From contig CACNHX010000001.1 of NCBI GenBank assembly GCA_902620425.1, positions 93,471 to 157,470 on the forward strand: a DNA stretch of 64,000 nt, in the 5' to 3' direction. The stretch comes from an uncultured Alphaproteobacteria bacterium (lineage in GTDB: Bacteria > Pseudomonadota > Alphaproteobacteria > HIMB59 > GCA-002718135). The notes under the pieces were generated by a model that was not told the origin of the DNA, ran no database searches, and saw nothing but the letters and a program-made list of their open reading frames with translations. The first letter of the stretch is position 1, and the number at the start of each line of letters is the position of its first letter. The translations under genes were made by a program, and so were the position numbers. Of the stretch, positions 7,326 through 62,420 are shown piece after piece.

Positions 7326-7387
7326 GTTGACATTATTAATTTAATTTTTTAAGCTCATATACATTATATTTATTCAAGGGAGGAATA

Positions 7388-13223: not shown

Positions 13224-13225
13224 TC

Positions 13226-14500: not shown

Positions 14501-14519
14501 TAAGATTAATTAATATAAA

Positions 14520-24045: not shown

Positions 24046-24064
24046 TAATTATATATAAAAAAAT

Positions 24065-24091
24065 AAGGGGATTTTATATCCCCTTTTTTTT
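24065..24091 (+). terminator. Rho-independent terminator/attenuator between the SBP and permease genes
   Basis: Stem aagggga (24065-24071) paired with tcccctt (24079-24085), a 7-nt loop, then a T-run to 24091. The next ATG is at 24103. Confidence 0.7.
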
Positions 24092-24102
24092 AATTTTGAA
24101 GT

Positions 24103-25880: not shown

Positions 25881-25971
25881 ATTTTTTATAGATTTAAAAT
25901 TTAATTTATTCTAAGATATATTAAGATTATAGTGATCTTAGCACTTGAAAAATCGCTCAAAGGAGGATGAA

Positions 25972-27051
25972 GTGGCAGATATAAATATAAATACTGTAAA
26001 TAAATATTTTGGAGACGTCCATGTAATCAAAGACGTATCTCTAGACATCAAAAGTCAATCGTTCACAGTTCTAGTCGGACCTAGTGGTTGTGGTAAATCA
26101 ACTATGTTAAGAATGATAGCAGGACTTGAAGATATAAATTCAGGTACAATTTCAATTGATGGTCAGGTAGTTAATGATTTACCACCAAAGCAAAGAAATA
26201 TTGCAATGGTGTTTCAATCTTATGCATTATACCCTCATATGACTGTATTTGATAATATGGCTTTTGGTTTAAAATTAGAAAAAAGATCAAAAGATGAGAT
26301 TAATGAAAGAGTTAATGAGGCAGCAAGAATTCTTCAAATAGAAGATTATCTTCAGAGAAAACCAAAACAACTTTCAGGTGGTCAAAGACAACGTGTTGCT
26401 ATTGGAAGAGCAATTACAAGAAAGCCAAAAGTTTTCTTATTTGATGAACCACTTTCAAACCTTGATGCTGCATTAAGGGTTCAAATGAGAGTTGAGTTAG
26501 CAAAACTTCATAATGAACTAGAAGCAACAATGATCTACGTTACACACGATCAGACAGAAGCAATGACACTTGCTGATGATATTGTTGTACTTGATACCGG
26601 TATCGTTTCACAAAAAGGATCCCCATTAGAACTTTATGATAGACCAAATAATATGTTCGTAGGTGGATTTATTGGTTCACCAAAAATGAACTTTATTTCA
26701 AGTAAGATATTAAGCAAAAGTTCTGATGCTACAGAAGTTGATATTATGGGAATGTCAAAAATATCAGTCTCTAAAATGTCAGCATCCTCCTCAGAGGGTG
26801 ATTCAGTAACTCTAGGTATTAGACCTGAACACTTAATAGTAAATGGTGATGCTGATGGATCTTGGGAGAGTAAAGTGTTTGTTGTTGAAAAACTTGGTGA
26901 CGTTACTTACCTTTACCTTGAAAAAGATGGAGAGCCATTAGTTGCTGAAACTGAAGGACATTCAGAAATTAAAGTTGGTGACACTGTAAAAGTTGGTTTT
27001 CCTGCTGGAAGATGCCAGTTATTTGACAGTTCAGGACAAGCATTTAAATAA
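25972..27051 (+). CDS. MalK/UgpC/ThuK-type sugar ABC ATP-binding protein
   Basis: Walker A GPSGCGKST, signature LSGGQRQRV, Walker B FLFDEPLSNLD, and a C-terminal regulatory/TOBE-like domain. I prefer the GTG at 25972 (AGGAGG at 25961-25966, 5-nt spacer, product MADININTVNKYFG...) over the TTG at 25945 used in the ORF track. Confidence 0.85.
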   Translation: MADININTVNKYFGDVHVIKDVSLDIKSQSFTVLVGPSGCGKSTMLRMIAGLEDINSGTISIDGQVVNDLPPKQRNIAMVFQSYALYPHMTVFDNMAFGLKLEKRSKDEINERVNEAARILQIEDYLQRKPKQLSGGQRQRVAIGRAITRKPKVFLFDEPLSNLDAALRVQMRVELAKLHNELEATMIYVTHDQTEAMTLADDIVVLDTGIVSQKGSPLELYDRPNNMFVGGFIGSPKMNFISSKILSKSSDATEVDIMGMSKISVSKMSASSSEGDSVTLGIRPEHLIVNGDADGSWESKVFVVEKLGDVTYLYLEKDGEPLVAETEGHSEIKVGDTVKVGFPAGRCQLFDSSGQAFK

Positions 27052-31008: not shown

Positions 31009-32109
31009 TTAAATTTCTGTCTTTCTATATTCTGATTTCTCTAACCAATGAGGATTAATCTCGATACCCCAACCAGGAGTATCTTCAATTTTAACCATTC
31101 CATTAGATATTTTAAAAGGATCACCTAAAAATAAATTCTGTTGCCATGGATAATAATCTTTACCTTCAATTGAAAATTCAAGATAGGGACCTGAATTATT
31201 TATTGCTTTTAAAAAATGCATTGTACAAATTGTTACTAAAGATAAATTAGCTGTATGTGGAGTACATATAAAACCACCTTTTTCAATAATTTTCGCAACC
31301 TTCAAAGCTTTTGTTAATCCTCCCATGTACATAACATCTGGCTGAAAAATATTTACAATTTTTCTGTTAACCATATCTCTCCAAATTCTCAGATCACAAT
31401 CTTGTTCTCCCCCAGTAACATCTATCTTCAAACTATCAGTAACTTTCTTAGTTTCTTCTGGTTTCCAGTAAGGACAAGGTTCTTCAAAATGAGTAACATC
31501 ATTATCTTCTAAAAGTTTCCCAATTTCTATTGCCTGAAAAGAGTTATAACAACTGTTTGCGTCGACCATCTTAATTACACTTTTATCTAGAGTCGAATTT
31601 ATTGTTTTTACTATACTAGGCGTTCTTCCTTCCCATTCATCAACTCCCCTTCCACATTCAGAGCCAACTCTAAATTTGAATGCATCAACACCCTTTTCAT
31701 CAAAGAGTTTTTTAAATCTATTTGCTTCATCATCTGGTGAAATATCTCTTTTCATCGATGATCCATAAATTCTTAAATTTCCTGGGGATCCTCCTATCAA
31801 TGAAACTACCGGCTTACTTTCAATTTTACCTTTCAAATCCCATAATGCCGTATCTAAACCAGCAATTGCACGTAAAAGATATGACCCTGGAAATTTATGT
31901 TCTCTTTCAAAGATAAAATCTTCTAAATCATCGAAATCAAAATACTCTTTTCCTAAAACCCAGGGCGCTACTTGTTTATGAAAAATTTGTGCTGTAATAT
32001 CTGCATGATATGTTGACATTTGCCCATAACCAATTGAACCATCCTCAACTGTTATTTTTACAAAACTTACATAAGGTTTTGTGAATGTTTCAAGTTTAAC
32101 TATTTTCAT
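31009..32109 (-). CDS. Enolase-superfamily enzyme (mandelate racemase/muconate-lactonising family, sugar-acid dehydratase-like)
   Basis: 366 aa. Metal-ligand motifs in canonical order: KMVDANSCY, HFEEPC, VTGGEQD. Confidence 0.75.
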   Translation of the reverse strand: MKIVKLETFTKPYVSFVKITVEDGSIGYGQMSTYHADITAQIFHKQVAPWVLGKEYFDFDDLEDFIFEREHKFPGSYLLRAIAGLDTALWDLKGKIESKPVVSLIGGSPGNLRIYGSSMKRDISPDDEANRFKKLFDEKGVDAFKFRVGSECGRGVDEWEGRTPSIVKTINSTLDKSVIKMVDANSCYNSFQAIEIGKLLEDNDVTHFEEPCPYWKPEETKKVTDSLKIDVTGGEQDCDLRIWRDMVNRKIVNIFQPDVMYMGGLTKALKVAKIIEKGGFICTPHTANLSLVTICTMHFLKAINNSGPYLEFSIEGKDYYPWQQNLFLGDPFKISNGMVKIEDTPGWGIEINPHWLEKSEYRKTEI

Positions 32110-32112
32110 AAA

Positions 32113-33726
32113 TTAAATCTTATTTAAATCCTCAATAATAAATTTACTTCCAAGATTAGCAAGCATCATTACAGGGGCATTTATATTGCCAGAAGTAATA
32201 TTTGGAAAAACAGATGCATCAGCAATCCAAAGATTCTCCATTCCATGAACTTTTAATCTTTCAGAAACAACTCCTTTTTTAGGATCTTCATCCATTTTAC
32301 AAGTACCACAAGGGTGATATATAGAAACTGCATTAGATTTAAAGTGATCAATCATTTCTTCTTCAGTAGCATTTAAAAGATCATGCGTAACACTTTCATT
32401 TCTTATTTTTTTTATACTATTTGTATTCGCCAAAACTTGAGAAAAATTAATTGCGCATTTCACATCATATATATCTTCTTCATGTGATAGAAAATTTGGA
32501 TCAATCAATGGAGCATCTTCAAAATTAGGAGAGTTCAATGCAACTCTACCCAAACTTTTTGGTCGACAAGAATTATAACCAATAATAAAACCATTAAATT
32601 TGTCAGTTTTTAGAAGAGGTCTTTTATTTTTATGAGTGATAGAATAAGTCAACGGATTGAAATATATCTGCAAGTTGGGATAATGATGTTTTGAATTCCA
32701 ATTTACATATCCCCCAGACTGATTAATACTTAGTGATAATGGTCCTTTCCTATTATAAATATATTTTAATACAGAAGTAATTCTGCCTGGCCAAGTTCCT
32801 AACGATTTATTTAGTGAATGATGATGAGTTTTAAATAAATAATCTAACCCAAGATGATCCTGAAGATTTCTTCCAACATTAGAATTATCAATTATTATTT
32901 CTTTATCAAATTTTTTTAAATGTTCTTTATCTCCAATACCAGAATGCATTAACAAATAAGGTGTCATTATAGAACCAGAACATAAAATTGCTCCATGAGA
33001 TAATTGTATGATTTGTTCTATTGATTTATTTTGAATTTTAATACCAGTAATTTTTTTATCTTTAATTATTAAATTTTTAACTTGAGTATTGTCTAATATT
33101 GTAAGTCTTGGATTTTTTAATACAGGCTTTAAAAATACTTTTGATGATGAATGCCTAGTACCATTGTAAGTATTAATATTATAATGACCTACTTGATTTT
33201 CGACTGATGTAGTTAAATTTGTATTTTTTTTAATACCAATTTCATTACTAGCATTAAAAAAATATTCTAAAATTGGATGATGATGCTTACTTACATTATT
33301 TACTGGAATCTTTTCTTTTGTTAGAAATTCTTTATCATGATTTATTTGTTGCTCCATAGAACTGTATACTTTTTTTATATTTTCAAAACTCCATTCCTTA
33401 TTGCTACCCCAATTTTCATAATCTGTTTCTAATCCTCTTGCATAGACCATTGCATTTATTGAGCCAGAGCCACCTAAAACTTTACCTCTCGGATAATATA
33501 TTTGCCTATTGAATAAATTATCTTGTTTTTCTGAATAGAAGTTCCAATTAATTTTTTTATTATAAAATGTCATTCCATAACCAAGAGGAACGTCAATAAT
33601 AGGATTGTTATCTTTAGGCCCAGCCTCAATAAGGGCTATATTAAAATTAGTTTTAGTCAGAAGTTTATTTGCTATTATACTTCCTGCAGAACCTGCTCCA
33701 ATAATTGCTATATCAATATTATTCAA
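32113..33726 (-). CDS. GMC-family FAD oxidoreductase (choline/sugar dehydrogenase-like)
   Basis: 537 aa. IAIIGAGSAGSIIANKL, GGSGSINAMVYARG and C-terminal IYHPCGTCKM. TTG start 1 nt after the upstream stop. Confidence 0.85.
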   Translation of the reverse strand: MNNIDIAIIGAGSAGSIIANKLLTKTNFNIALIEAGPKDNNPIIDVPLGYGMTFYNKKINWNFYSEKQDNLFNRQIYYPRGKVLGGSGSINAMVYARGLETDYENWGSNKEWSFENIKKVYSSMEQQINHDKEFLTKEKIPVNNVSKHHHPILEYFFNASNEIGIKKNTNLTTSVENQVGHYNINTYNGTRHSSSKVFLKPVLKNPRLTILDNTQVKNLIIKDKKITGIKIQNKSIEQIIQLSHGAILCSGSIMTPYLLMHSGIGDKEHLKKFDKEIIIDNSNVGRNLQDHLGLDYLFKTHHHSLNKSLGTWPGRITSVLKYIYNRKGPLSLSINQSGGYVNWNSKHHYPNLQIYFNPLTYSITHKNKRPLLKTDKFNGFIIGYNSCRPKSLGRVALNSPNFEDAPLIDPNFLSHEEDIYDVKCAINFSQVLANTNSIKKIRNESVTHDLLNATEEEMIDHFKSNAVSIYHPCGTCKMDEDPKKGVVSERLKVHGMENLWIADASVFPNITSGNINAPVMMLANLGSKFIIEDLNKI

Positions 33727-33727
33727 A

Positions 33728-34750
33728 TTAGAATGTTTGTGTTACTTTAGTTAAATATCTAGGATTGTCTGGATCTAATCCCTTTTCAAAAGAGTAATTA
33801 ACTATCCATGGATAAAATTTTGATAGAACTATAATTGGATCTAACTCTATCATATCATTAGGGCTATATCTAAGTTTAGTGTTAGAGTTTATATCATAGG
33901 TTATTTCATAGTGAAGATTAGTTAATGAAATAATTTGACTAGCATCTTTTGTTACTATCTTCCCACTTTTGTCTCTAAGTGAGATTGTAAATAATTTGAA
34001 TGAGTTTTGTATCAAGCTTTTTGGCCCATGCATTACTTCAGCACTACTGAAAGGTTCTATCATTTCTTGACATAACTCTTTAAACTTTAAAGATATTTCA
34101 TTAGAAATTGCATATCCAACACCTCTACTAATTATGTATCCATTACTTATGGTTTTATCTAATATATTTGGATTCCATTGATTTTGATTATCTAAAATTA
34201 AATGATCACTTAACTTTTCAATTTGTTTATTAATATCTTTTTTATTAAGAGTATTAAAAACAAGCTTTAAAATTATCAATAAAGACAAAACAAATGTTTT
34301 TGTCGCAGCAACACTTTTTTCTTCTCCAGCATTTATATCAAAAAAATAATTGGATGTGTTTGCAATTGGGCTATTTAAGTTATTACTTATTAAAATAGTC
34401 TTTGCTCTCATTTTTTGTACCATTTTATGACATTCAACCAAATCTTCACTTTTTCCTGATTGAGAAATAATGAAAACTAATGCTCTCGAAAAATTAAATT
34501 TTGATTCTTCTAAAGTTATTATAGATGGAGGCATGCTGTATGTTGGTAGACCAAGATATTTTGCAAACATATAAGATAAATACAAAGCAGCACAATCTGA
34601 AGTACCTCTTGCTACAGTAACAACATAATCAATTTTTTTTTCTGATATTAAACTTGATATTTCCTGGTAATTATTTTTATCATTTAAGATAAAATGATTA
34701 ATTTTATTTGGAATTGAGAGTGCTTCCGATAAAACTTTAGAACTAGACAT
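33728..34750 (-). CDS. Double-SIS-domain sugar-phosphate deaminase/isomerase (NagB-II / AgaS-like)
   Basis: 340 aa with two SIS-like halves (VARGTSDCAA..., IISQSGKSEDL). It overlaps nagA by 8 nt. Confidence 0.7.
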   Translation of the reverse strand: MSSSKVLSEALSIPNKINHFILNDKNNYQEISSLISEKKIDYVVTVARGTSDCAALYLSYMFAKYLGLPTYSMPPSIITLEESKFNFSRALVFIISQSGKSEDLVECHKMVQKMRAKTILISNNLNSPIANTSNYFFDINAGEEKSVAATKTFVLSLLIILKLVFNTLNKKDINKQIEKLSDHLILDNQNQWNPNILDKTISNGYIISRGVGYAISNEISLKFKELCQEMIEPFSSAEVMHGPKSLIQNSFKLFTISLRDKSGKIVTKDASQIISLTNLHYEITYDINSNTKLRYSPNDMIELDPIIVLSKFYPWIVNYSFEKGLDPDNPRYLTKVTQTF

Positions 34751-35837
34751 TAATTTTCTTTCCTCTTAAATAAACTTCTTTAAGATTAAATTCTTTATCT
34801 AAAATAAGAAAATTACTTAAAAAATTTTTTTGAATTACACCGACATTGTCTAGATTCATATATTTAGAAGCATTATAACTAGTTAAAGCGACTGCTTCTT
34901 CTAATGAAAAATTCATTGATATTAAATTTTTAAAAGTTTGATCCATAGTAACAATACTTCCTGCTAAAGTACCTTCAGACTTAATTTTTACTGAATGATT
35001 TTCTTTTTTTATATTATTTTTTGCAAAAATATATTCTCCATCATTCATTCCGCTAGCGTTAATAGAATCTGTTATCGCATAAAGACCAGGAATACATTTT
35101 TTTGCAATTTTTATTGCTTCTTTACTAACATGAATATTATCGCAAATTATTTCAGCATATTTTCCTTTTGAAAGAGCAGCTGATAAAACTCCTGGGGATC
35201 TATGATCATTACCAGACATAGCATTATACAAATGTGTAAAACCAATTTCATGATCTGTCATAATTTTTTCACAGCAATCAAAGTCTGCCAAAGTGTGGCC
35301 AAATTGAATCTTAATATTTAGCTCCACTAAATCATTTATAAATTCTTGCATTCCATCAATTTCTGGGGCTAAGGTAATGATTTTTACATCGGCAATTTCA
35401 AGAATTTTTTTTATAAACTCTAAAGATGGTTTCTCAGTTAAATTTGGTTGAGCGCCAAGTTTATTAGGATTAATAAAAGGTCCTTCTAAATGAACTCCAA
35501 GGATATTATTACCATTATCTTTCTTTATTTCATTAAATCCTTTTAACGCTGAAATAGTATTTTCTAAGGTATTGGTCCAAGTAGTTGGCATTATTGAAGT
35601 GGTACCATGTCGTAAATGATACTTAGACATTTCAATAATTGATTGTGAGCCCTCCATTACATCAAAACCATTACCACCATGACAATGGAGATCAATAAAA
35701 CCAGGAATTATAATATTATTATAATTATCAGAGTCCTTAATTTTTAAGTCACTAATTTTTTCACTAAAATATACATCACCAATATAGGAAGAATTATAAT
35801 TAATAATTTTTCCACTAACTTTATTTTGATCAGTCAT
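34743..35837 (-). CDS. nagA: N-acetylglucosamine-6-phosphate deacetylase
   Basis: 364 aa. PGFIDLHCHGGNGFD and HLEGPFINP. Confidence 0.85.
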   Translation of the reverse strand: MTDQNKVSGKIINYNSSYIGDVYFSEKISDLKIKDSDNYNNIIIPGFIDLHCHGGNGFDVMEGSQSIIEMSKYHLRHGTTSIMPTTWTNTLENTISALKGFNEIKKDNGNNILGVHLEGPFINPNKLGAQPNLTEKPSLEFIKKILEIADVKIITLAPEIDGMQEFINDLVELNIKIQFGHTLADFDCCEKIMTDHEIGFTHLYNAMSGNDHRSPGVLSAALSKGKYAEIICDNIHVSKEAIKIAKKCIPGLYAITDSINASGMNDGEYIFAKNNIKKENHSVKIKSEGTLAGSIVTMDQTFKNLISMNFSLEEAVALTSYNASKYMNLDNVGVIQKNFLSNFLILDKEFNLKEVYLRGKKINV

Positions 35838-35892
35838 CTAAACTTATTATCTTATATAGTAATTTGTTGATTTTTAAAAAAATTAAAAAAAC

Positions 35893-36621
35893 TTATAAAT
35901 GAGGATTAATCTTACTAAATTTTTTCTCTAATTTGTCATTATTTCTTTTAGCATTTGGCATATTTACACTGATATAGAATGGAAACAATTTTTCATTTTT
36001 TAAGATATTTGCAACTTCAATTAAAATTGAATTTAAAATAAAAGATCCTGTAATTGTTGAAGCTGGTCCAACCATGTTATCTTTAATATTTATAATTGCA
36101 TCACCAGGTGGAATCTTATTATCGATGAATATATCCGTTATTTCAAATAATCTTTTATTCAATTTAGATAGAGGAGCTTGTTTTGAGTATTTTACAGATG
36201 TTAGTGAAATAGTTTTTATTTTCTTTTTCTTAGCAATCAAAGCTGCTTCAACTGGAGCGTGATTGACACCTGAATTAGATACAATCATCAATATATCTTT
36301 GCTAGTAATTTTATATTTAGCTAGAGCTTTTTTTGCAATATTTGGAGTTCTTTCTAAAGCAGTGGCCTTTCTTGCTCCTTTTTTAAAACTGAGATCATCA
36401 TCTCTTATTGGACATGCGGCAGCAAAACCACCTGCTCTATGAAATGATTCTTCTCCGAGTAATCTAGAGTGTCCAGTTCCAAAAATATATAACTGCCCAC
36501 CTTTTTTATATGATTTACTAATTAACTTAGCACACTGTAAGAATTTTTTTTCTTCTTCTTTTAATATCTTCTTTAAAATTGAATTAATTTTTGATGAATA
36601 GGATCTCGTTAATTTACTCAT
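35893..36621 (-). CDS. Single-SIS-domain protein (UPF0309-like), no HTH
   Basis: LYIFGTGHSRLLGEE and MIVSNSGVNHAPVE. The ORF track starts at a TTG (36636). I prefer the ATG at 36621 (MSKLTRSY...). Confidence 0.6.
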   Translation of the reverse strand: MSKLTRSYSSKINSILKKILKEEEKKFLQCAKLISKSYKKGGQLYIFGTGHSRLLGEESFHRAGGFAAACPIRDDDLSFKKGARKATALERTPNIAKKALAKYKITSKDILMIVSNSGVNHAPVEAALIAKKKKIKTISLTSVKYSKQAPLSKLNKRLFEITDIFIDNKIPPGDAIINIKDNMVGPASTITGSFILNSILIEVANILKNEKLFPFYISVNMPNAKRNNDKLEKKFSKINPHL

Positions 36622-36639
36622 TTGAATTTTATACAAGAT

Positions 36640-36662
36640 GCTAGGGCAAATATTGCCCTAGC
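36640..36662 (-). promoter_or_regulatory. Intercistronic GC-rich stem-loop just downstream of the SBP gene
   Basis: gctagggcaa (36640-36649) paired with ttgccctagc (36653-36662), a near-perfect palindrome with no clear U-tail. It sits between the SBP stop (36675) and the next start. Confidence 0.6.
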
Positions 36663-36674
36663 AAAATAATATAA

Positions 36675-37886
36675 TTATTTGTATTCTTCTAACTCTTCAG
36701 CTGCTTCAGCTACTAGATCTGCAGCATCTCCTTCACCAAGAATTGCACCTTGGATCATAGAGTTCATAACAGTTTGAAAAGCTTTGTAGTCTACAAATAG
36801 TGGCTCTGGTCCACCATCGCCAATTGCATCAATAAACATCATCCAATAATCTTCATTGTATGGGGCTTCATTCCCAATTTGAGGATATTGCATAATTGGT
36901 GTTAGACCCCAATCAGTATCTAGACTGTATTGAGAGTCACCTGATGTAATTATACTAGCTAATTCCATTGCTTCTTTTTCAACACCTGTGTTTGAGAAAA
37001 CTGCAACACTATCAGTGATTAAAAGCGTACCCTGACTTCCTTGTGGTCCAGCTGGAATTCTAACTGTTTTAACATCTAGACCTTCCTTATGCTGACCTCT
37101 ACCCCAAGGTCCATTAATATACATAGCAATTTTTTCGTCATTAAATAGTTCTGTTAACTGAGATCTCTCCCAAGCTAAAGGACCTTCTTGAGCAACGTTT
37201 GCTAACTTTCCATAAAATTCTAATGTTTCAACAGTATTAGATGAATTCAAAGTTATTTCATTTGTCATTGGATCAATAACTTGTCCTCCATTACTGTATA
37301 AGTAGTTTAAGAATTGGTGCATAGTATTATCAAAATCTTTACCAGCTAGTCCAATTCCTGCTGCTCCATCAACATTTTTTGTTACAGCTTCAGCCATTGA
37401 ATATAATTCATCCCAAGTTTGAGGACCTTCACATGCAACACCTGCTTTTTCTAAAAGACCACAATTCATGAAAAGTGCTTTAGTTGAAAACGCATGAGGG
37501 AAACCCCAAGTTTTACCCATGTGTGTAACTGTGTTTAGGATACCCGGTTGATACATTGCTTTTTGAGAAGCAGGTATATTTGTTTCTAAAATATGTCCGT
37601 TTTCTGCAAGACCTTTTAGAGTTCTTGATCCAACATATGAAAATGCAACAGGATCACCTGCAATAGCAAGATTGATTACTTTATCTTGACATGTTCCCCA
37701 AGGAACAGCCTCTAGAGTTACAGTAACTCCAGGATTGTCTTCCATGTACTTATCAGCTATTTCAACATAATTAGGTCGAAGCTCACCGCCACAAAATACT
37801 CCGTGTACTTCAGCAGCATAAGTTTTGAAACCAACTAGTGAAAGTATAGCTATTGTAAGAAATGAAGATAGTTTTTTGAAATTCAT
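36675..37886 (-). CDS. Family-1 extracellular solute-binding protein (CUT1; probable chitobiose/GlcNAc-type by context)
   Basis: 403 aa. Signal peptide MNFKKLSSFLTIAILSLVGFKTYA. GGAGG SD (complement of 37891-37895). Confidence 0.8.
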   Translation of the reverse strand: MNFKKLSSFLTIAILSLVGFKTYAAEVHGVFCGGELRPNYVEIADKYMEDNPGVTVTLEAVPWGTCQDKVINLAIAGDPVAFSYVGSRTLKGLAENGHILETNIPASQKAMYQPGILNTVTHMGKTWGFPHAFSTKALFMNCGLLEKAGVACEGPQTWDELYSMAEAVTKNVDGAAGIGLAGKDFDNTMHQFLNYLYSNGGQVIDPMTNEITLNSSNTVETLEFYGKLANVAQEGPLAWERSQLTELFNDEKIAMYINGPWGRGQHKEGLDVKTVRIPAGPQGSQGTLLITDSVAVFSNTGVEKEAMELASIITSGDSQYSLDTDWGLTPIMQYPQIGNEAPYNEDYWMMFIDAIGDGGPEPLFVDYKAFQTVMNSMIQGAILGEGDAADLVAEAAEELEEYK

Positions 37887-37961
37887 AATTCCTCCATTTA
37901 AATATAAAAAAGAGATAACATTAACTGGCTCTATGAAGCAAGTTAGTTTTTGGGTATTTTT

Positions 37962-38801
37962 CTAGTTTTTTACCGCCCCAGAAGTAAGTCCAGCAACAAT
38001 ATATTTCTGTAGAAAAAGGAAAATTATTAAGACAGGGGCAATCCCAACAAGAGAGGCTGCCATCATTTCATTCCATTTGACTGTTGTGTAACCAATAAAT
38101 TCATACAGCCCTGAAGGGATAGGCATATATTCTTTTTTCTGATTAAATGTAATCGCAAATAAGAATTGTTGAGCATAAGATCCTATAAAAGCGTATATCC
38201 CAACAACTACCAGACCAGGTGTACTAAGAGGTGCGATTATGTGTCTGAGTATTTGTACTCTTGAAGCCCCATCTACAAAAGCTGCCTCTTCTAAATCTAT
38301 TGGTATTTTCTCAAAGTAAGACTTTAGCAACCAAATTGCAGTTGGAATTAAAAAAGCCACACCGGGAACAATCATAGCTTGATATGTATTTAGCAAACCA
38401 AATGTTCTTAATACTTTATAGAGAGGAATTAATAAAACTGCCCCTGAAAACATATTAATTGCTAATAAAATATAGAGTGAAGAATTTTTAAAAGGAAATT
38501 TAAAACGTGCATAAGAGTAAGCTGCAGGAATTACAAAAAGCAAAGTAATAATAGAAGTAACTGAGGCAAGAAAAAAACTATTAAAAATATATCGTGGAAG
38601 CATTGGTACTGTATTCCACATTTCTCGATAAGCCCAAAAAGATAAATCATCTGAATAAAATTGGTATGGCGAACGAAATAAATGATCTAAAGGTCGAAGC
38701 GATGCATAAAACATTTCGACAAAAGGCAAAAGAATAAAAATCATAAAGATTAATATTCCTAAATATAATAATATCTTTTCGTATATATTATATTTATCCA
38801 A
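37962..38801 (-). CDS. CUT1 sugar ABC permease, MalG-type, tandem copy A
   Basis: 279 aa. EAA loop DLEEAAFVDGASRVQILRHIIAPLS. TTG start (38801) 1 nt after the stop of copy B. Confidence 0.8.
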   Translation of the reverse strand: MDKYNIYEKILLYLGILIFMIFILLPFVEMFYASLRPLDHLFRSPYQFYSDDLSFWAYREMWNTVPMLPRYIFNSFFLASVTSIITLLFVIPAAYSYARFKFPFKNSSLYILLAINMFSGAVLLIPLYKVLRTFGLLNTYQAMIVPGVAFLIPTAIWLLKSYFEKIPIDLEEAAFVDGASRVQILRHIIAPLSTPGLVVVGIYAFIGSYAQQFLFAITFNQKKEYMPIPSGLYEFIGYTTVKWNEMMAASLVGIAPVLIIFLFLQKYIVAGLTSGAVKN

Positions 38802-38802
38802 T

Positions 38803-39642
38803 TTAGTTTTTTACCGCACCTGCGGTAAGTCCCTCAACTATATACTTTTGTAAAAATACAAATAATAATAAAACAGGCAACATTCCTACTAAAGCAGCTG
38901 CCATCATCTCATTCCATTTAACACTTTGATATCCTATAAATTCATATAACCCTGTTGGAATTGGCATATATTCTTTTTTCTGATTAAATGTAATCGCAAA
39001 TAAGAATTGTTGAGCATATGCACCTATAAATGCATAAATACCAACTACAACTAATCCAGGTGTACTTAAAGGAGCTATGATGTGTCTGAGTATTTGTACT
39101 CTTGAAGCCCCATCTACAAAAGCTGCCTCTTCTAAATCTATTGGTATTTTCTCAAAGTAAGACTTTAGCAACCAAATTGCAGTTGGAATTAAAAAAGCCA
39201 CACCAGGAATTATCATAGATTGATAACTATTTAATAAACCTAAAGTCCTTAAAAGTTTGTATAAAGGTATTAAAATTACTGCTCCTGAAAACATATTAAT
39301 TGCTAGGAGAACGTATAAGCTCGTATTCTTAGCTGGAAATTTAAAACGTGCGTATGCGTAGGCTGCAGGAATAACAAATATAAGAGTTAGTATAGCAACG
39401 CAGGAAGCCAGAAAAAAACTATTAAAAATATATCGTGGAAGCATTGGTACTGTATTCCACATTTCTCGATAAGCCCAAAAAGATAAATCATCTGAATAAA
39501 ATTGGTATGGTGAGCGAAATAAATGATCTAAGGGACGAAGCGATGCATAAAACATTTCAATAAAAGGCAAAAGAATAAAAGTCATGAAGACAAAGATGCC
39601 AAAATAGATCAATATTTTTTCAAAAGGATTATATTTATTCAT
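38803..39642 (-). CDS. CUT1 sugar ABC permease, MalG-type, tandem copy B
   Basis: The ORF track starts at a TTG (39669). The ATG at 39642 (MNKYNPFEK...) gives 279 aa, the same length and register as copy A, with an 8-nt overlap on the upstream gene. Confidence 0.8.
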   Translation of the reverse strand: MNKYNPFEKILIYFGIFVFMTFILLPFIEMFYASLRPLDHLFRSPYQFYSDDLSFWAYREMWNTVPMLPRYIFNSFFLASCVAILTLIFVIPAAYAYARFKFPAKNTSLYVLLAINMFSGAVILIPLYKLLRTLGLLNSYQSMIIPGVAFLIPTAIWLLKSYFEKIPIDLEEAAFVDGASRVQILRHIIAPLSTPGLVVVGIYAFIGAYAQQFLFAITFNQKKEYMPIPTGLYEFIGYQSVKWNEMMAAALVGMLPVLLLFVFLQKYIVEGLTAGAVKN

Positions 39643-40534
39643 GAGAAATTTTCTTATTAATTCTAGCAAGTAAAGCTAAGTAAAATCCTGCAAATAACAT
39701 TAGTAAAATCATTACGACTACGGCTCTAGCAGCACCTCTTCCAAATTTATAATTTCCTAATGCTTGTTTATAGGTGTCGATAATTAATGTAGTTGTTGAA
39801 CCTCTTGGCCCACCTTCAGTCAATATCCAAATTATTTCAAATGAGTTGAATGTCCAAATAGCAGATAGTAATGACATTGTAATAATGACAGGAGTGATTT
39901 GAGGTAATGTGATTTTAAAAAATCTATCCCATCTTGAAGCGCCATCACAATAAGCAGCTTCATATAAATCTCTTGGCACACCCTGCATTGCAGCTAGAAA
40001 GAAAACGGTTACCATTGGTGTTCCAACCCAAACATCGGCAATGATTGTAGAAATAAAGGCACTTTGTTTGTAAGCAAGAAATCCAAAAGGACCGTCCAAA
40101 ATACCAGTTCGCATACCTACACCTGCGATAATTCCAAAATACCCGTTATATAACCATAACCAGCCAAGCATACCAATTGCAATTGGAACTACCCATGGCG
40201 GCATTACAAGCACTCTGAAAATTGATCTTCCTTTTAAATTAGCATTAAGTAAAACAGCTCCAATTAAACCAATGATAAGTTTTAAAGAGACTGAAAAAAA
40301 CATCCAAACAAATGTTCTGGTCACTATTCCATTAAATTTTTTACTAGAAAACATTTTTTGATAATTTTCTAAGCCAACATAATCTTCTCCTGCTAAACTA
40401 GAATTTGTAAAAGATAATCTAATTGTTTCTAATAATGGCCAAGCAACAATAAGAATTATATAAATAGCAGCAGGAGCAATTAGTGCATATGCTATATATG
40501 TTTGGGCGGTATATGATTTTAATTTTTGATTCAT
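39635..40534 (-). CDS. CUT1 sugar ABC permease (MalF-type)
   Basis: 299 aa. EAA loop DLYEAAYCDGASRWDRFFKITLP. Confidence 0.85.
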   Translation of the reverse strand: MNQKLKSYTAQTYIAYALIAPAAIYIILIVAWPLLETIRLSFTNSSLAGEDYVGLENYQKMFSSKKFNGIVTRTFVWMFFSVSLKLIIGLIGAVLLNANLKGRSIFRVLVMPPWVVPIAIGMLGWLWLYNGYFGIIAGVGMRTGILDGPFGFLAYKQSAFISTIIADVWVGTPMVTVFFLAAMQGVPRDLYEAAYCDGASRWDRFFKITLPQITPVIITMSLLSAIWTFNSFEIIWILTEGGPRGSTTTLIIDTYKQALGNYKFGRGAARAVVVMILLMLFAGFYLALLARINKKISHE

Positions 40535-40539
40535 AATTA

Positions 40540-41685
40540 CTAATTTAATAGGGAGTCGAATTTATCCCAAGTGCTTGTTAAGTCAATTACTTTACCAGTA
40601 TTTCTAGCTTCATCAATTTTCATAGCAACAATTCCTGCCTCCATACATTCTATTACACCAACTGGTAATTCTTTATTATTTTTTAATAAATAATTGTTAA
40701 TGTCTTGAGCCATCATGCTATCTGCGCCATAATGACCTTTAATTTCTTTTCCAAAAGCTGCTCCATAATCTTCATCAATAAGTAAATTATTATTTTCATC
40801 ATGAGCTTTCATAAATCCTTTAACAAAATCTCCCTCAATCATTCCCGCAGATCCTATGACTGCAAATCTTCGAAATTCGTCTGGAACTTTCATATTAGTA
40901 TGAAAAGATAGTACTGCTTTATTTGCATATTCTATTATTGCTACTTGATGATCGACGATATCAGCATCACTATCAAAAACATTTGATTTTGACTCCCAAC
41001 CTTTTAGCCTGTCTTTTGTATATTGTTCATGAGAACCCTCTGGAAGATTTTCGGGTATAAAAGATCTTCTTGAACCAAAACTAGCAACTTTAATAGGTCT
41101 GCTCTTCGTAATCATTGAATAAAAGTCAATGTCATGACAACATTTTTCCAGCATAAAACCTCCAGAATATTTTTGTTTTCTTCTCCAGTTTCTCATAAAA
41201 AAAGCACCGTGCGAAGGTACGATATGTTCTGAAGCTTCAATCGATATTATATTTCCAATAGCATTTTGATCTAATAATTTTCTCACAGATCTTGCTTGCT
41301 GTGAATATCTTAAAACTAAGCCAACAATAATTCTTTCTTTGCCATATTCTTTTATTAATTTTGCTAACTCAAAAGTTTCTTGTTCGCTTATTACTATAGG
41401 TTTCTCAGCAAATATTTGTAATCCTGCTCTTAATCCAAGCTTAATATGATCTAAATGTAAATGATTGGGGGACCCAATCATTAACATATCTAGTTTCTCT
41501 CGATCCAACATTTCGTTTAAACTTGAATATGATTTATTTGGAAAAAAATTATTTTTCTCAGCAAAATCTTTACCTATTGGCTGAGGATCTACATAAGCAA
41601 CCATTTCAAAATTTGGATTAACTTTTGAAAATTCATTATAAACACCTGCTGTCCTACTCCCAAAACCGACTGCGCCTATTTTCAT
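40540..41685 (-). CDS. Gfo/Idh/MocA-family oxidoreductase
   Basis: 381 aa. MKIGAVGFGSRTAG and FAEKPIV. Same subfamily as 18702..19901 (shared WR..QKYSGG, SFGSR and HYGAD strings). Confidence 0.8.
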   Translation of the reverse strand: MKIGAVGFGSRTAGVYNEFSKVNPNFEMVAYVDPQPIGKDFAEKNNFFPNKSYSSLNEMLDREKLDMLMIGSPNHLHLDHIKLGLRAGLQIFAEKPIVISEQETFELAKLIKEYGKERIIVGLVLRYSQQARSVRKLLDQNAIGNIISIEASEHIVPSHGAFFMRNWRRKQKYSGGFMLEKCCHDIDFYSMITKSRPIKVASFGSRRSFIPENLPEGSHEQYTKDRLKGWESKSNVFDSDADIVDHQVAIIEYANKAVLSFHTNMKVPDEFRRFAVIGSAGMIEGDFVKGFMKAHDENNNLLIDEDYGAAFGKEIKGHYGADSMMAQDINNYLLKNNKELPVGVIECMEAGIVAMKIDEARNTGKVIDLTSTWDKFDSLLN

Positions 41686-41703
41686 ATTTATTTTACTTTA
41701 ACA

Positions 41704-43566
41704 TTAAAAATTGTGATATCGCCAGCCTAATTTTTTTAAAAAATCCATAGAATGTAGAAGTGCTGAACGAAATTCTATCCATTTTCTTGAAATTTTTCCT
41801 TTCCATGCAACTTCTGATAAAGTTGCTAATCTTGGATTGATCATTTGATCAAAAAATTTTTTATCTGTAATTGTCTCTGACCACAGTTGACCTTGTAACC
41901 CTTTTATCAATTCTGATTTATTTAAATCTTTTATTGGGTCCCATTCATAAATATCTTTTACCTCTATAGTTGCAGCCCAACAAATACCTCTTTCTTCAGT
42001 TGAATTATTATAAGCCATATCAAAATATGTTTTTTGACCGGGACAAAGTATTGTTTCAAATCCCTTATTTGTAGTTTCTTTTGCAACATCTGAATGCTCC
42101 CATGAAAAGATCAAACATGATTTATCAATTTTTCCAGCACTTCCACCCACACCATGATCGATATGAGGAGACACTGCCGCCTCATTCCATGCAGCTGTTC
42201 TTTTATTTTTTGATTTTAGAAAATCTATTAAAAAATTCATATAGTAATCTTGATATTCCTCTTGTGATTTAATATTATTTTTTTTCATAAACTCGATAAT
42301 TGCTGGAGAACCTTCCCAGGCATTACTTGGTCTTTCATCAACGCCAACATGAATTACATCATATGAGAAAATATCACTTACTTCATTCAACATATCTTTT
42401 AAAAAAGTTATAGTTTTTTCTAAGGAAGGATTTATTGTATTATTCTTATACGAACCAACATCTTCACTAACTATATTTGAAGACTGTTCCCTAAGGTCTG
42501 GCATAATTTCTAGTAATGCCCAAGAATGTGCTGGTAAATCAATTTCAGGCATAATTTCGATATTTAATTTTTTTGCATATATAATTAAATCTTTGATATC
42601 TTCCTGTGAGTAATATCCGCCGTATTTATCATAACCACTTCCGTACAATGGTGGTATTTTAAAATTATATCCTCTGTATCCCCCATTTAATGCTAGATCT
42701 GGATATTTTCTAATTTCAATTCTCCACGCTTCGTTATCTGTTAAATGCCAATGAAATCTATTAAGCTTAAATAATGCCATGTAATTAAATAAACGTTTGA
42801 TTTCATTAATAGTATAGAATTGTCTTGCACAATCGAGATGCATTCCTCTCCATTGATATTTTGGATTATCGTGAATTGTACAAATTGGAAGCTTTGTTTG
42901 ATAGAAATCAATTAAATGAACTAAAGATATAAGACCATATAGCTTTCCACCATAAGTATTGAATTTAATCTCAATATTATCTTTTGTTATATGCATAAAA
43001 TATTGATCGTTTAATAACTGATCATCTTTTTCAAAAAAAATTGGAAATCCTTTTTCAGAAGTAAAATTAATATCCAATTTGTAAATAACATTTTGCAAAT
43101 TAGAAATAATTTCAATTTCCGTATTTAGATTAAATGTTTTATTTTCAATATTTACAAATTCATTTTGTAAATAAATTTTTTCTGGCTCAGGAATAATAGG
43201 TATAAAATTTTTTGTTTTTAAATCTTCATAAGTTTTCTTTTTAATTGGTTTTTCAAATATCAAATCTGAAACATTTATATTTAATTTACTATTGTTTAAT
43301 GTATCAATAATGAAAATACCTTCCGGACCACACGAAAGGTTGAAGTTACCAATTTTAGGAATTTGTAAATCTAATAAAATTGTATTTTTTTTTATAGATA
43401 ACTCGTAATAACGTCCAATTTGTTTTGTTATTTCACCTCCTGATATAGATTTTATTGAATAAACTAATGAGAAACACAGTTTCAAATTTGAAACTACTAA
43501 TTTATCATCAAGAATAATTTTTAATTTATTTTCATTTGTAAAAGATATATTAATTTGATTAGTCAT
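41704..43566 (-). CDS. GH20 beta-N-acetylhexosaminidase (cytoplasmic chitobiase-like)
   Basis: 620 aa. GMHLDCARQF, FHWHLTDNEAWR, and the catalytic D-E pair in IHVGVDE. No signal peptide. Confidence 0.85.
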   Translation of the reverse strand: MTNQINISFTNENKLKIILDDKLVVSNLKLCFSLVYSIKSISGGEITKQIGRYYELSIKKNTILLDLQIPKIGNFNLSCGPEGIFIIDTLNNSKLNINVSDLIFEKPIKKKTYEDLKTKNFIPIIPEPEKIYLQNEFVNIENKTFNLNTEIEIISNLQNVIYKLDINFTSEKGFPIFFEKDDQLLNDQYFMHITKDNIEIKFNTYGGKLYGLISLVHLIDFYQTKLPICTIHDNPKYQWRGMHLDCARQFYTINEIKRLFNYMALFKLNRFHWHLTDNEAWRIEIRKYPDLALNGGYRGYNFKIPPLYGSGYDKYGGYYSQEDIKDLIIYAKKLNIEIMPEIDLPAHSWALLEIMPDLREQSSNIVSEDVGSYKNNTINPSLEKTITFLKDMLNEVSDIFSYDVIHVGVDERPSNAWEGSPAIIEFMKKNNIKSQEEYQDYYMNFLIDFLKSKNKRTAAWNEAAVSPHIDHGVGGSAGKIDKSCLIFSWEHSDVAKETTNKGFETILCPGQKTYFDMAYNNSTEERGICWAATIEVKDIYEWDPIKDLNKSELIKGLQGQLWSETITDKKFFDQMINPRLATLSEVAWKGKISRKWIEFRSALLHSMDFLKKLGWRYHNF

Positions 43567-43579
43567 AACTAGTAATTAT

Positions 43580-44647
43580 ATGAGTTTTAAAGATATATTT
43601 AATATAGACGCAGAAGTAAAGGAAAGTGCTCATGCAAGAGTAAATTTAATTGGTGAACATACCGATTATACTGGTGGATATGTCATGCCTACACTTTTAT
43701 CTTTTAAAAATACCATTGAGATATCTCAAAATAATTCTAATGAATTCACAGTTTATTCTCAACATTTTAAAGAAAAAAAAACATTCAATGATTTCAAAAA
43801 ATCAATAAACAATGAGTGGGTTGATTATATAAAAGGTTGTTTGCATATTTTTTTTGATGAAAATAAGATTTCATCTAGATTTTTAAACATTTTTATTTCA
43901 TCTGATATACCTTTAGAAAGAGGTATTTCATCATCTTCAGCATTGTGTGTTGCTACACTAAAAGCACTTAATACTTTTTTTGAAACAAAAATCAAAGATC
44001 CAGAAATTGCAAAATTAGCAAAGAAAGTAGAATTCAACTATATAGGTGTTTCTGGTGGAATAATGGATCAAATGGTCTCTTCTATTGGTATTCATGGCAA
44101 AGCATTTTTTATGAATTGTAAGAATTTAGAATACGAACTTATTAATTTTCCAGAAAATTGGAAATTTTGTTTGATTGACTCTGAAGTACAACGAAATTTA
44201 AGAGATAGCTCTTATAATGAAAGATTTGCTGAACTCCAAGAGGCTGAAAAAAAACTTGGTGTAGAATATTTAGGTGAAGTTAAAAAAGAAAATTTTCAAA
44301 CAAATAAATTTGAAAATAATACTATAGCAAAAAGAGCAAAGCATGTAGTTTTTGAAAATGATAGAGTGATTAATGCGAAAAAAAATTTAATAGAAAATAA
44401 TATTCAGGAGTTTGGAAAATTAATGAATGAAAGTCACGTATCATATTCTAAAGATTTTGAAGCATCTACTTTAGATGTTGATTTAATTGTTCAGAGATCG
44501 GTTGCATGTGGTGCTCTTGGCGCCAGATTGACTGGTGGTGGATTTGGTGGTTTTACAGTTTCATTAATTGAAAGAAATAATTATAGTAATTGGTATAGTA
44601 AAATATTAAATTTTTATCCTGCTGAAAAGATCTTCGAAGTCAATTAG
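43580..44647 (+). CDS. galK: Galactokinase-family GHMP sugar kinase
   Basis: 355 aa. Galactokinase signature ARVNLIGEHTDYTGGYVMP and GHMP ATP loop PLERGISSSSAL. Confidence 0.75.
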   Translation: MSFKDIFNIDAEVKESAHARVNLIGEHTDYTGGYVMPTLLSFKNTIEISQNNSNEFTVYSQHFKEKKTFNDFKKSINNEWVDYIKGCLHIFFDENKISSRFLNIFISSDIPLERGISSSSALCVATLKALNTFFETKIKDPEIAKLAKKVEFNYIGVSGGIMDQMVSSIGIHGKAFFMNCKNLEYELINFPENWKFCLIDSEVQRNLRDSSYNERFAELQEAEKKLGVEYLGEVKKENFQTNKFENNTIAKRAKHVVFENDRVINAKKNLIENNIQEFGKLMNESHVSYSKDFEASTLDVDLIVQRSVACGALGARLTGGGFGGFTVSLIERNNYSNWYSKILNFYPAEKIFEVN

Positions 44648-45720
44648 GGTTTTAGTAATCTTCTAAGCTTACCCTCAGTGACATCATGATCAATATAACA
44701 TCCTTGTAGATGTCTAAAACCAGTATTTGGATCAAATTTAGTTCTTCCATGTAATAATCTCAGGTTATCAAACATTGCAATCATTCCTCTAGATAATCTA
44801 AATTTAATTTTGAAATCATCAGAGTTACAAAGTTTGAACATATATTTTCTAGCATTATAAAAGAGATCAAGATTGTTTTCCTCTAATAATGGAACATAAT
44901 CAAGTCTTCCACTAAATCGTATTTGTCTAAAGTTATTATTATGGTCTAGTTCAATTAATTTTGCTTCATCAACTAAAATAGTATCAATATCTGTAAATTT
45001 AAAAGTAACATTAGTTTCAGTTAATACTTTATAAAATTCAGGTTGGTTATGTTTTAAAAAATTTGCAACACTAAAACCATCAACTAAACTTGAGTCTCCT
45101 CCTGTAGATTCATTAGCAATACAATGAAGTAATTGAATTCCGGGAACAGGCTTTCTATATGGGTTATCAGAATGCGAAGTTAACTCTAATGCAGTATAGG
45201 CAAGGTCATTTGGATTTGGTTTTGAGACAACGTTAAATAATTTTCCAAAATTTGTTGCTCGAACTGGGCCTAATTTTTCAGCAAAATTTATAACTTCATC
45301 TTCTTCTGCTTTTGTATTTTCAATTATTACATAACCATATTGATAAAATACTTTAAGCATATTGATAAGTTCCTTTTTATTCTCAAAGATTTTATTATTA
45401 TCAAAAATCTCCAAATTTTGTTCACTGACATTCCATATTTTTTTTTCAGGTATGACATCAATATTATTGATTTCATTATAAAGATCATCAATATTAAAAG
45501 ATCCTTTTGCTCCATCACTAAATTCAACATTTAATATATTTTCGTTAACATGATGAGAATTTATAAATAGATTATCATCTAAAAGGCTTGGTTCATATAA
45601 ACGTTGTAAATTATTTTGGTCTACAAATTCACTCCCATTTAATCTTTCACGAAGCCAAATGCTATGAAGTTTAAACTCTGATAATTTTCCTTCATTAATA
45701 GAAATTATTTTTTTTCCCAT
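44644..45720 (-). CDS. Gamma-butyrobetaine/trimethyllysine dioxygenase-family Fe(II)/2OG oxygenase
   Basis: 358 aa. LTSHSDNPY (H-x-D), IQLLHCIANESTGGDSSLVDGF and FDNLRLLHGR closely parallel my recollection of animal BBOX1. The N-terminal DUF971-like domain lacks the C-x-C-x2-C zinc triad. Confidence 0.8.
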   Translation of the reverse strand: MGKKIISINEGKLSEFKLHSIWLRERLNGSEFVDQNNLQRLYEPSLLDDNLFINSHHVNENILNVEFSDGAKGSFNIDDLYNEINNIDVIPEKKIWNVSEQNLEIFDNNKIFENKKELINMLKVFYQYGYVIIENTKAEEDEVINFAEKLGPVRATNFGKLFNVVSKPNPNDLAYTALELTSHSDNPYRKPVPGIQLLHCIANESTGGDSSLVDGFSVANFLKHNQPEFYKVLTETNVTFKFTDIDTILVDEAKLIELDHNNNFRQIRFSGRLDYVPLLEENNLDLFYNARKYMFKLCNSDDFKIKFRLSRGMIAMFDNLRLLHGRTKFDPNTGFRHLQGCYIDHDVTEGKLRRLLKP

Positions 45721-62354: not shown

Positions 62355-62420
62355 AATATATTTTGTAATGAAGCTTGAATAACTGCATGAAAACAAATAG
62401 TCAAAAGTTAATTTAAAAAA

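Follow-up and report, generated by a model that had tools for sequence, protein, structure and literature searches.

In the 64,000-nt stretch of DNA analysed here (the window), two MalG-type permease genes lie head-to-tail on the minus strand with a single nucleotide between them. Their open reading frames bear out the first-pass annotation of two adjacent 279-codon genes, which we refer to as copy B (upstream) and copy A (downstream). The pair and the features around it are as follows:

39635..40534, minus strand: MalF-type permease, the single-copy partner TMD gene
38803..39642, minus strand: MalG-type permease copy B, upstream, 279 aa, ATG start, identified by its ORF, Pfam BPD_transp_1 and MalG/SugB homology
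38802..38802, minus strand: 1-nt spacer between B and A (TAA-A-TTG)
37962..38801, minus strand: MalG-type permease copy A, downstream, 279 aa, TTG start at 38799-38801
36675..37886, minus strand: solute-binding protein (SBP; SBP_bac_1), with a GGAGGA Shine-Dalgarno sequence
36639-36663: strong hairpin after the SBP gene
31009..43566, minus strand: amino-sugar utilisation operon context
25945..27051, plus strand: MalK/UgpC-type ABC ATPase with TOBE/OB domains, the only one of its type in the window

The ATG of B overlaps the last 8 nt of malF (39635-40534). Copies A and B are each 840 nt long and align without gaps at an offset of 841 nt, with 83.1% nucleotide identity and 86.8% protein identity, the latter with A's TTG read as Leu and the stop codon counted among the positions. 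Both proteins match Pfam BPD_transp_1 (49.2 bits for A and 48.9 bits for B, against a cut-off of 26.4), and both match MalG and SugB with E of about 1e-28 to 1e-34. The EAA coupling motif (EAA-x3-G-x9-I-x-LP) reads LEEAAFVDGASRVQILRHIIAPL in both copies and aligns to the EAA loops of MalG and SugB. Scores of 115 and 123.5 bits against the E. coli MalG equivalog NF008231 (NCBIfam) fell under its 261-bit cut-off, so the genes are MalG-like in fold but not orthologues of the maltose system.

The operon at 31009..43566 comprises genes for a GH20 hexosaminidase, a Gfo/Idh/MocA oxidoreductase, MalF, B, A, the SBP and SIS_2, together with NagA, a NagB-II-like SIS protein, a GMC oxidoreductase and an enolase-superfamily protein. 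The nagA profile TIGR00221 scored 251.6 bits, over its cut-off, and the SBP gave weak MalE and GanS matches in NCBIfam. A scan for promoters in this 30% GC DNA returned fewer matches than in shuffled sequence and carries no information here. The CUT1 partner set is present, with the MalF-type TMD and SBP_bac_1 protein inside the operon and the MalK-type ATPase outside it. The transporter had previously been described as having three TMD genes and no ATPase gene; this holds for the operon, in which we found no ATPase gene, but a MalK-type gene lies 11 kb away (25945-27051). CUT1 systems normally share a MalK/MsiK-type ATPase (PMC6167110), and an operon without its own ATPase is normal for the family. 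We consider the gene at 25945-27051 a candidate shared energiser.

The first-pass annotation had also reported three blocks of perfect identity between the copies, of 56, 125 and 101 nt, and these proved exact:

38569..38669, minus strand: 101-nt perfect tract, gene nt 133-233, P1 periplasmic loop, A-type alleles
38239..38363, minus strand: 125-nt perfect tract, gene nt 439-563, TM4 and EAA coupling loop, A-type alleles
38122..38177, minus strand: 56-nt perfect tract, gene nt 625-680, from the end of TM5 into the start of the P3 loop

When mismatch positions were shuffled, the mean longest runs were 29, 24 and 21 nt and the maximum was 78 nt. The observed tract lengths were reached in 0 of 20,000 shuffles, and a codon-level shuffle agreed. 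Tandem Repeats Finder reported no repeat, a result that is uninformative because its maximum period of 500 nt is shorter than the 841-nt repeat unit here. Within the 125-nt block, 49 sites are polymorphic across 45 related genomes and all are identical between B and A in the window (P=0.0002). Judged against L005, the nearest tract-free genome, all three blocks carry A alleles, which indicates A as the donor and B as the recipient. The 101-nt tract gives the window's B a Pro69 in place of Gly69, the residue found in 44 of 45 B copies.

To place the pair in a wider context we drew on 77 related loci from HIMB59/AEGEAN-169-like marine Alphaproteobacteria, 45 of which have an intact pair, each in an independently assembled species-level genome from single cells or metagenomes. 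The ATG and TTG starts, the 1-nt spacer and the 841-nt offset are constant in all 45. These comparative data strongly support ongoing gene conversion between tandem paralogs, the explanation first favoured for the blocks. Perfect tracts vary by genome, from none of at least 40 nt up to 706 nt, and their boundaries differ among genomes. The median longest perfect tract was 101 nt when B and A came from the same genome, against 29 nt when they were mismatched (P<5e-5), and the summed tract length was 8238 nt for own-genome pairs against a permutation mean of 1306 nt for mismatched ones. A tract test restricted to polymorphic sites gave P<0.01 in 43/45 pairs. Here we used per-pair P values with the mismatched-pair control and discarded the global P, because the nearly fully converted L044 pair dominates that statistic. 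The two copies hold 290 polymorphisms in common and only five fixed differences. In the segments that are hot for conversion, divergence was 0.112 between B and A within a genome, 0.127 between orthologs and 0.151 between B and A across genomes, an order that holds in 42 of the 45 genomes. The hot-segment tree groups copies by lineage or genome, and the cold-segment tree groups them largely by copy.

We found that the two copies have nevertheless remained distinct proteins. Both are under strong purifying selection (omega≈0.03-0.04), with omega among orthologs of 0.036 (B) and 0.031 (A). In the cold segments the paralogs have diverged to a dS of 1.35-1.8, which indicates an old duplication. 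Strong differentiation between B and A is confined to about eight codons (7, 12, 69, 139, 239, 240, 262 and 274), of which two map to the P3 scoop loop in the periplasm and one to the C-terminal tail. We placed these residues by sequence alignment to MalG and SugB because a homologue search returned only sequences at least 97% identical, too shallow a set for a reliable model. The MalG P3 scoop loop spans residues 236-262 (PMC6906923), and on this alignment codons 239-240 fall within it. B is unlike A at these two codons in 45/45 genomes, and in the window they read:

38923..38928, minus strand: B codons 239-240 (CAA AGT, Gln-Ser), aligned to E. coli MalG Q256-N257
38082..38087, minus strand: A codons 239-240 (ACA ACA, Thr-Thr), at the same scoop-loop position

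The alternative that best survives these data is neutral redundancy or dosage, in which the duplicate is kept or tolerated without a functional difference and the cold segments have drifted past the reach of recombination. Divergence in the cold segments can by itself block conversion, with no need for selection. The residue differences are mostly conservative (I/L/V, S/T/A), the hot segments are those in which the protein is most conserved, and paralog omega is only ~0.1, so that a signal of positive selection is absent. Three genomes in pair-bearing lineages (L036, L051 and L060) carry a single chimeric gene with a B-type 5' part and an A-type 3' part. The proteins of these chimeras are each represented by one contig in the records; if real, the chimeras would mean that two copies are dispensable. 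However, neutrality predicts that the surviving differences would be mostly synonymous, and we found that all 12 of the strongly differentiated sites are non-synonymous, against 111 non-synonymous and 238 synonymous sites elsewhere (Fisher P=1.7e-6, a McDonald-Kreitman-style value that is approximate since sites within codons and related genomes are not independent). The paralog-specific residues are also conserved across orthologs at dS≈1, these genomes are streamlined and have few duplications (PMC10308909), and the longest tract observed, the 706 nt of L044, ends just short of codons 239-240. We therefore regard neutral redundancy as unlikely. The locus is better described as one of recurrent gene conversion combined with selection for two isoforms.

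It could also be asked whether the identical stretches were made by recombination between genomes, or by repeated independent re-duplication, rather than by intrachromosomal conversion. The whole transporter cassette has been exchanged between lineages, and the L044 pair is 96% identical. Yet copies from one genome are more alike than cross-genome pairs, the tracts are short and internal, and L044 retains a paralog-specific 3' end. Every pair has the same junction, with its 1-nt spacer and TTG, and this points to a single duplication. This origin of the tracts is thus very unlikely, and what high inter-genome recombination does do is spread converted alleles, complicating the dating of individual events.

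Very strong nucleotide-level constraint, the other explanation initially offered for the perfect blocks, would have them preserved by a DNA or RNA function such as an embedded RNA, a regulatory site or a structure. The blocks do fall in roughly similar regions across many genomes, but those regions are polymorphic among orthologs (pi 0.10-0.13), with 40-49 polymorphic sites within the two large blocks. Moreover, B and A taken from different genomes lack the tracts, and tract ends vary. An Rfam scan of 36000-41000 returned no match at E<=0.1. We reject constraint on these grounds and give it hardly any weight.

Equally improbable is that the TTG-initiated copy A is decaying, or is poorly translated and headed for pseudogenisation. 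In favour of this, its TTG is a weak start that lacks a nearby Shine-Dalgarno sequence, public gene callers shorten it, and one B copy (L050) carries a frameshift. That frameshift is the sole inactivating exception, as internal stops were absent from all 119 extracted genes, including the 90 paired copies. A is intact in 45/45 genomes with a lower omega than B, it serves as the conversion donor, and its first 19 codons look coding. The suggestion that one copy is at an early stage of loss is therefore rejected. The TTG, 1 nt past the stop of B as originally noted, is conserved in 45/45 genomes, and the pattern of change in codons 2-19 of A is that of coding sequence. Together these features make it plausible that A is translated from the TTG by termination-reinitiation coupling to B, with the 1-nt spacer as the likely site of coupling. 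Public gene calls shorten A to 250-260 aa because they miss the conserved TTG, the 260-aa form beginning at the ATG of codon 20, and the downstream copy is thus mis-annotated in public databases. Exact look-ups of the 279-aa and 288-aa proteins matched no public record; for full-length A this follows from the calls that begin at codon 20, and between the window's B and its nearest database entry there is a difference of one residue or more.

Finally, mis-assembly of the pair or its tracts has a negligible probability, for although five single-cell contigs (L001, L006, L048, L049 and L077) stop inside the pair, which shows that assemblers have difficulty with the region, the same architecture recurs in the 45 independent assemblies, in the apparently long-read MAG L045 (from a record named 'LRMED') and in Pilon-polished contigs of 436-681 kb, and phase-switch errors could not generate identity between copies. 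Short-read assemblies that break, or may collapse, at such a pair will nonetheless affect estimates of gene content.

We thus favour, with a probability of roughly 0.85 for the explanation as a whole, an old duplication with recurrent conversion, isoforms held apart by selection, alternative pairing and coupled translation. The MalG-type subunit gene of a CUT1-family sugar importer was duplicated in tandem long ago, and both copies have been retained in working order. Intrachromosomal gene conversion, presumably of RecA type, repeatedly transfers short stretches between them, typically 40-250 nt and up to 706 nt. The stretches lie chiefly where the P1 loop, TM4, the EAA loop and TM5 are encoded, and the three in this genome moved from downstream A into upstream B. 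Amino-acid-changing differences alone stay differentiated against this homogenisation, and selection probably maintains two protein isoforms. As evidence for conversion acting on a retained duplicate, the pair is a clear, if unsurprising, instance of an evolutionary process already known.

Alternative TMD pairing, a possibility raised when the pair was first described, gains support from this restriction to amino-acid-changing differences. The two isoforms may alternate as partners of the sole MalF-type subunit, the one SBP and an ATPase encoded elsewhere; the resulting two transporter variants would differ at the contact of the MalG-type subunit with the SBP and its ligand. A more specific proposal, which we put forward tentatively and consider rather less likely than not to hold in full, is that the importer has two interchangeable MalG-type subunits that give two substrate-release or gating variants, with conversion keeping the parts in contact with the shared partners, the EAA loop and TM4-5, identical and selection separating about eight codons. 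If true, the isoforms would be distinguished at their C-terminal tail and on the side facing the periplasm, in P1, P2 and the P3 scoop loop, which reaches into the SBP ligand cleft, and such an arrangement would offer a streamlined genome a compact route to wider transport capacity. The pair constitutes a natural experiment, with about 45 species-level genomes of a bacterium abundant in the ocean as replicates, in which homogenising conversion is set against selection for paralog divergence. The unusual ABC importer with three TMD genes could likewise serve as a test system for membrane-subunit swapping that alters transporter behaviour.

Within the searchable part of the literature, we found no earlier case of an ABC-importer permease gene that is duplicated or undergoes gene conversion. 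The system resembles the E. coli maltose importer MalFGK2-MalE in its BPD_transp_1 fold, EAA coupling loop, P3 scoop-loop position and GLT(A/S)GAVK C-terminal tail, and in its partners, a MalF-type TMD, an SBP_bac_1 protein and a MalK-type ATPase. Where the maltose importer has a single MalG gene, this system has two of that type, and it differs further in an operon without an ATPase and an amino-sugar context. The closest solved structure by sequence is SugB of the mycobacterial trehalose importer LpqY-SugABC (PDB 7CAD, 8JA7; E≈1e-34 over residues 19-278), in which the substrate context differs and the SugB gene is single. In gene context the locus resembles the Streptomyces systems DasABC-MsiK and NgcEFG, CUT1 importers of the chitin-derived sugars chitobiose and GlcNAc that lack their own ATPase and are energised by the MalK-like MsiK (PMC6167110). 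The likeness lies in the genomic association with amino-sugar catabolism (GH20, NagA, NagB) and an ATPase encoded elsewhere, whereas DasABC and NgcEFG have one gene per TMD. Within HIMB59/AEGEAN-169 itself, the divergent proteorhodopsin duplicates concern an unrelated protein, and the passages of PMC10308909 that describe them name neither a tandem arrangement nor gene conversion; they are similar in being functionally tuned paralogs retained in streamlined genomes.

For the process itself, the nearest comparisons are tufA/tufB in Salmonella and the rRNA operons, in which one paralog overwrites another on the same chromosome in contiguous, non-reciprocal tracts tens to hundreds of nucleotides long (PMC5485169, PMC8022953, PMC6053082). 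A word search of a prokaryote-wide survey of long-lasting conversion cases returned no 'ABC', 'permease' or 'transporter'. As in tuf and rRNA conversion, paralogs in the converted segments are more alike than orthologs. The pair here differs in that the copies are adjacent direct repeats, are only 83% identical and are partially homogenised; tuf and rRNA copies are nearly identical throughout, whereas here a set of amino-acid differences resists.

The MalG-type permease genes, upstream copy B and downstream copy A, belong to an operon for the utilisation of amino sugars or oligosaccharides. We confirmed that they lie head-to-tail at an offset of 841 nt, with an ATG start for B, a TTG start for A and a single nucleotide between them.

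Features of the permease-pair operon, and the nearby ATPase gene (window coordinates; TMD, transmembrane subunit; SBP, solute-binding protein; CUT1, ABC sugar importer family)
25945-27051, MalK/UgpC-type ATPase with TOBE/OB domains, part of a second CUT1 system
31009-32109, minus, enolase-superfamily protein
32113-33726, minus, GMC oxidoreductase
33728-34750, minus, NagB-II-like SIS protein
34743-35837, minus, NagA (score above the TIGR00221 cut-off)
35893-36636, minus, SIS_2 protein
36675-37886, minus, SBP_bac_1 binding protein (SBP)
37962-38801, minus, copy A, downstream MalG-type permease, TTG start
38803-39642, minus, copy B, upstream MalG-type permease, ATG start
39635-40534, minus, MalF-type TMD
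40540-41685, minus, Gfo/Idh/MocA oxidoreductase
41704-43566, minus, GH20 β-hexosaminidase

The ATG of B overlaps the final 8 nt of the MalF-type gene, and the TTG of A lies 1 nt past the TAA of B. Aligned at the 841-nt offset, the two 840-nt genes are gap-free and 83.1% identical, and their proteins are 86.8% identical when the TTG of A is translated as Leu and the stop codon is counted as a position. Realignment returned the three perfect runs of the first-pass annotation unchanged, at 38122-38177 (56 nt), 38239-38363 (125 nt) and 38569-38669 (101 nt). When mismatch positions were shuffled, the longest runs averaged 29, 24 and 21 nt, and the observed lengths were reached in none of 20,000 shuffles at either the nucleotide or the codon level. 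The G+C content of the window is 30%.

The tandem pair is real and occurs widely. A scan at one genome per species gave 77 loci, mostly from GORG single-cell genomes and some labelled HIMB59, ‘MarineAlpha5’ or Pelagibacteraceae; 45 genomes, the window included, carry a complete pair, each with the same ATG, TTG and 841-nt offset and none with an internal stop, while more distant relatives have a single copy. The possibility that the duplication is an assembly artefact was rejected, as the pair is also found in a metagenome-assembled genome whose name, ‘LRMED’, suggests long-read assembly (L045) and on three ENA contigs polished with Pilon (436-681 kb), where gene calls are fragmented in the way typical of long-read assemblies. 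Several short-read contigs stop within the pair, as a true repeat would predict.

Several lines of evidence support ongoing gene conversion between B and A, the reading that the first-pass annotation had favoured. Perfect tracts are specific to each genome: L005, the closest genome (97% identical), has none of at least 40 nt, L026 has tracts of 177 and 253 nt, L037 one of 239 nt and L044 one of 706 nt, with similar variation in 14 further loci. In a test restricted to polymorphic sites, the longest identical run was significant (P<0.01) in 43 of 45 pairs. The key control paired B and A copies from different genomes: the median longest perfect tract was 101 nt in true pairs versus 29 nt in these cross-genome pairs, and true-pair tract lengths summed to 8238 nt versus a permutation mean of 1306 and maximum of 3307 nt (P<5e-5). 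Polymorphisms common to the B and A sets number 290, against only 5 fixed differences. In trees of the frequently converted segments (gene nt 61-240 and 421-690), copies group by lineage, and for L026, L037 and L044 by genome, whereas in trees of the remaining, cold segments grouping is largely by copy. The alternative that the blocks reflect nucleotide-level constraint was rejected, since they are not invariant (ortholog diversity is 0.10-0.13 versus a within-genome B-A divergence of only 0.04-0.06, and 49 polymorphic sites fall within the window’s 125-nt block) and tract positions differ by genome.

Polarised against L005, all three blocks of the window carry A alleles, and so A was the donor and B the recipient. 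Codon 69 of B (listed at 38595-38597) encodes Pro, the A-type residue, in place of the Gly found in 44 of 45 B copies; this Pro entered with the 101-nt tract, so that conversion has here overwritten a residue that is normally paralog-specific.

Early loss of one copy, also raised in the first-pass annotation, is rejected by the absence of internal stops in all 45 pairs and by ω among orthologs of 0.036 for B and 0.031 for A. Where other loci encode exactly the B or A protein, 2-7% of their nucleotides differ from the window, exclusively at synonymous sites. In the cold segments the paralogs have a dS of 1.35-1.8, which places the duplication before the radiation of the pair-bearing lineages. 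In an MK-style contrast, all 12 strongly differentiated sites (allele overlap of at most 0.05 between the B and A sets) were non-synonymous, against 111 non-synonymous to 238 synonymous among the other variable sites (Fisher P=1.7e-6, approximate given that neither sites nor genomes are independent). The case for selected divergence rests mainly on this contrast. Both copies are functional, and there is statistical support for selection maintaining two isoforms. The 12 sites fall in codons 7, 12, 69, 139, 239, 240, 262 and 274. Codons 239-240, Gln-Ser in B and Thr-Thr in A in 45/45 pairs, align with Q256-N257 of E. coli MalG, within the P3 ‘scoop loop’ (residues 236-262) that enters the ligand site of the binding protein (PMC6906923). 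By MalG alignment, codons 69 and 139 probably lie in periplasmic loops; codon 274 is in the C-terminal tail GLT(A/S)GAVKN. The isoforms might pair alternatively with MalF, or might handle binding protein and ligand differently through the scoop loop.

Public annotations start A at an internal ATG, giving 260 aa or, in some lineages, 250 aa (window 37962-38801, minus strand; related loci L078-L091), and thereby miss the conserved TTG. The 279-aa TTG frame is the real one, because the TTG is kept in 45/45 genomes, codons 2-19 of A have a pN/pS of 0.30, equal to B, with no stops or indels, and 8 genomes encode Leu at residue 20, leaving no internal ATG there. No good Shine-Dalgarno sequence lies near this TTG, in contrast to the GGAGGA of the SBP gene, and A is likely translated through coupling to termination of B.

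Three loci within pair-bearing lineages (L036, L051 and L060) have only one gene, a 5'-B/3'-A chimera (ATG…TAG) with its junction in a high-identity segment. Deletion by unequal crossover between the repeats predicts this structure, and collapse during short-read assembly would yield the same chimera; each chimeric protein occurs on one contig only, and either explanation may hold. Likewise, a 2-nt frameshift near codon 257 in the B copy of L050 (~7223-8062) and a 1-nt indel that lengthens the B ORF in the Pilon-polished contig L091 could each be sequencing error or rare inactivation.

Lineages swap the transporter cassette as a module (loci L064-L076 and L024-L026). The module comprises the SBP gene, the MalG copies, MalF and a portion of the Gfo gene (~36,700-40,700). 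Flanks of L066 are 92-97% identical to the window at the nucleotide level, with a cassette of only 71-75% identity and a single MalG; L026 has a pair-bearing cassette of 89-95% identity between flanks of 68-78%. Breakpoints lie near 36,600-36,800 and 40,600-40,800.

As the first-pass annotation had observed for the transporter, no ATPase gene is present in the operon (31009-43566). The window holds three CUT1-type importer gene sets (12003-15860, 22789-27051 and 36675-40534) but only one MalK-type ATPase gene, at 25945-27051; the third, CUT1-like TMD pair at 12-14.5 kb likewise lacks its own. A more distant NBD gene, 39% identical, is encoded at 61266-62396. An operon without an ATPase gene is ordinary, since one MalK/MsiK-type ATPase is known to serve several CUT1 importers, e.g. 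DasABC-MsiK (PMC6167110). Directly past the SBP stop codon is a strong, GC-rich 11-bp hairpin (36639-36663, minus strand; TGCTAGGGCAA…TTGCCCTAGCA), which may act as an internal attenuator or stabilise the mRNA so that SBP levels rise relative to downstream genes; Rfam gave no matches in 36-41 kb of the window. Divergent from the operon is a GalK-like GHMP kinase gene (43580-44647, plus strand), adjoined by a TauD-family dioxygenase gene (44644-45720, minus strand). The presence of this kinase is a hint that GalNAc- or Gal-containing disaccharides may be handled here, beyond chitobiose alone.

The AEGEAN-169 genomics paper describes a clade emphasis on sugar transport and few duplications, and a word search of it turned up neither chitin, chitobiose nor N-acetylglucosamine (PMC10308909). 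Our literature search returned no paper that describes this locus or reports conversion between paralogous ABC permeases, and a word search for ‘ABC’, ‘permease’ and ‘transporter’ in a survey of long-lasting concerted evolution came back empty (PMC6053082). In fold and motifs the B and A proteins are MalG-like; their scores stay under the MalG equivalog cut-off. Conversion among paralogous bacterial genes is itself well known, e.g. for tuf and rRNA genes (PMC5485169, PMC8022953), and to this known process the B/A locus adds a well-resolved case.
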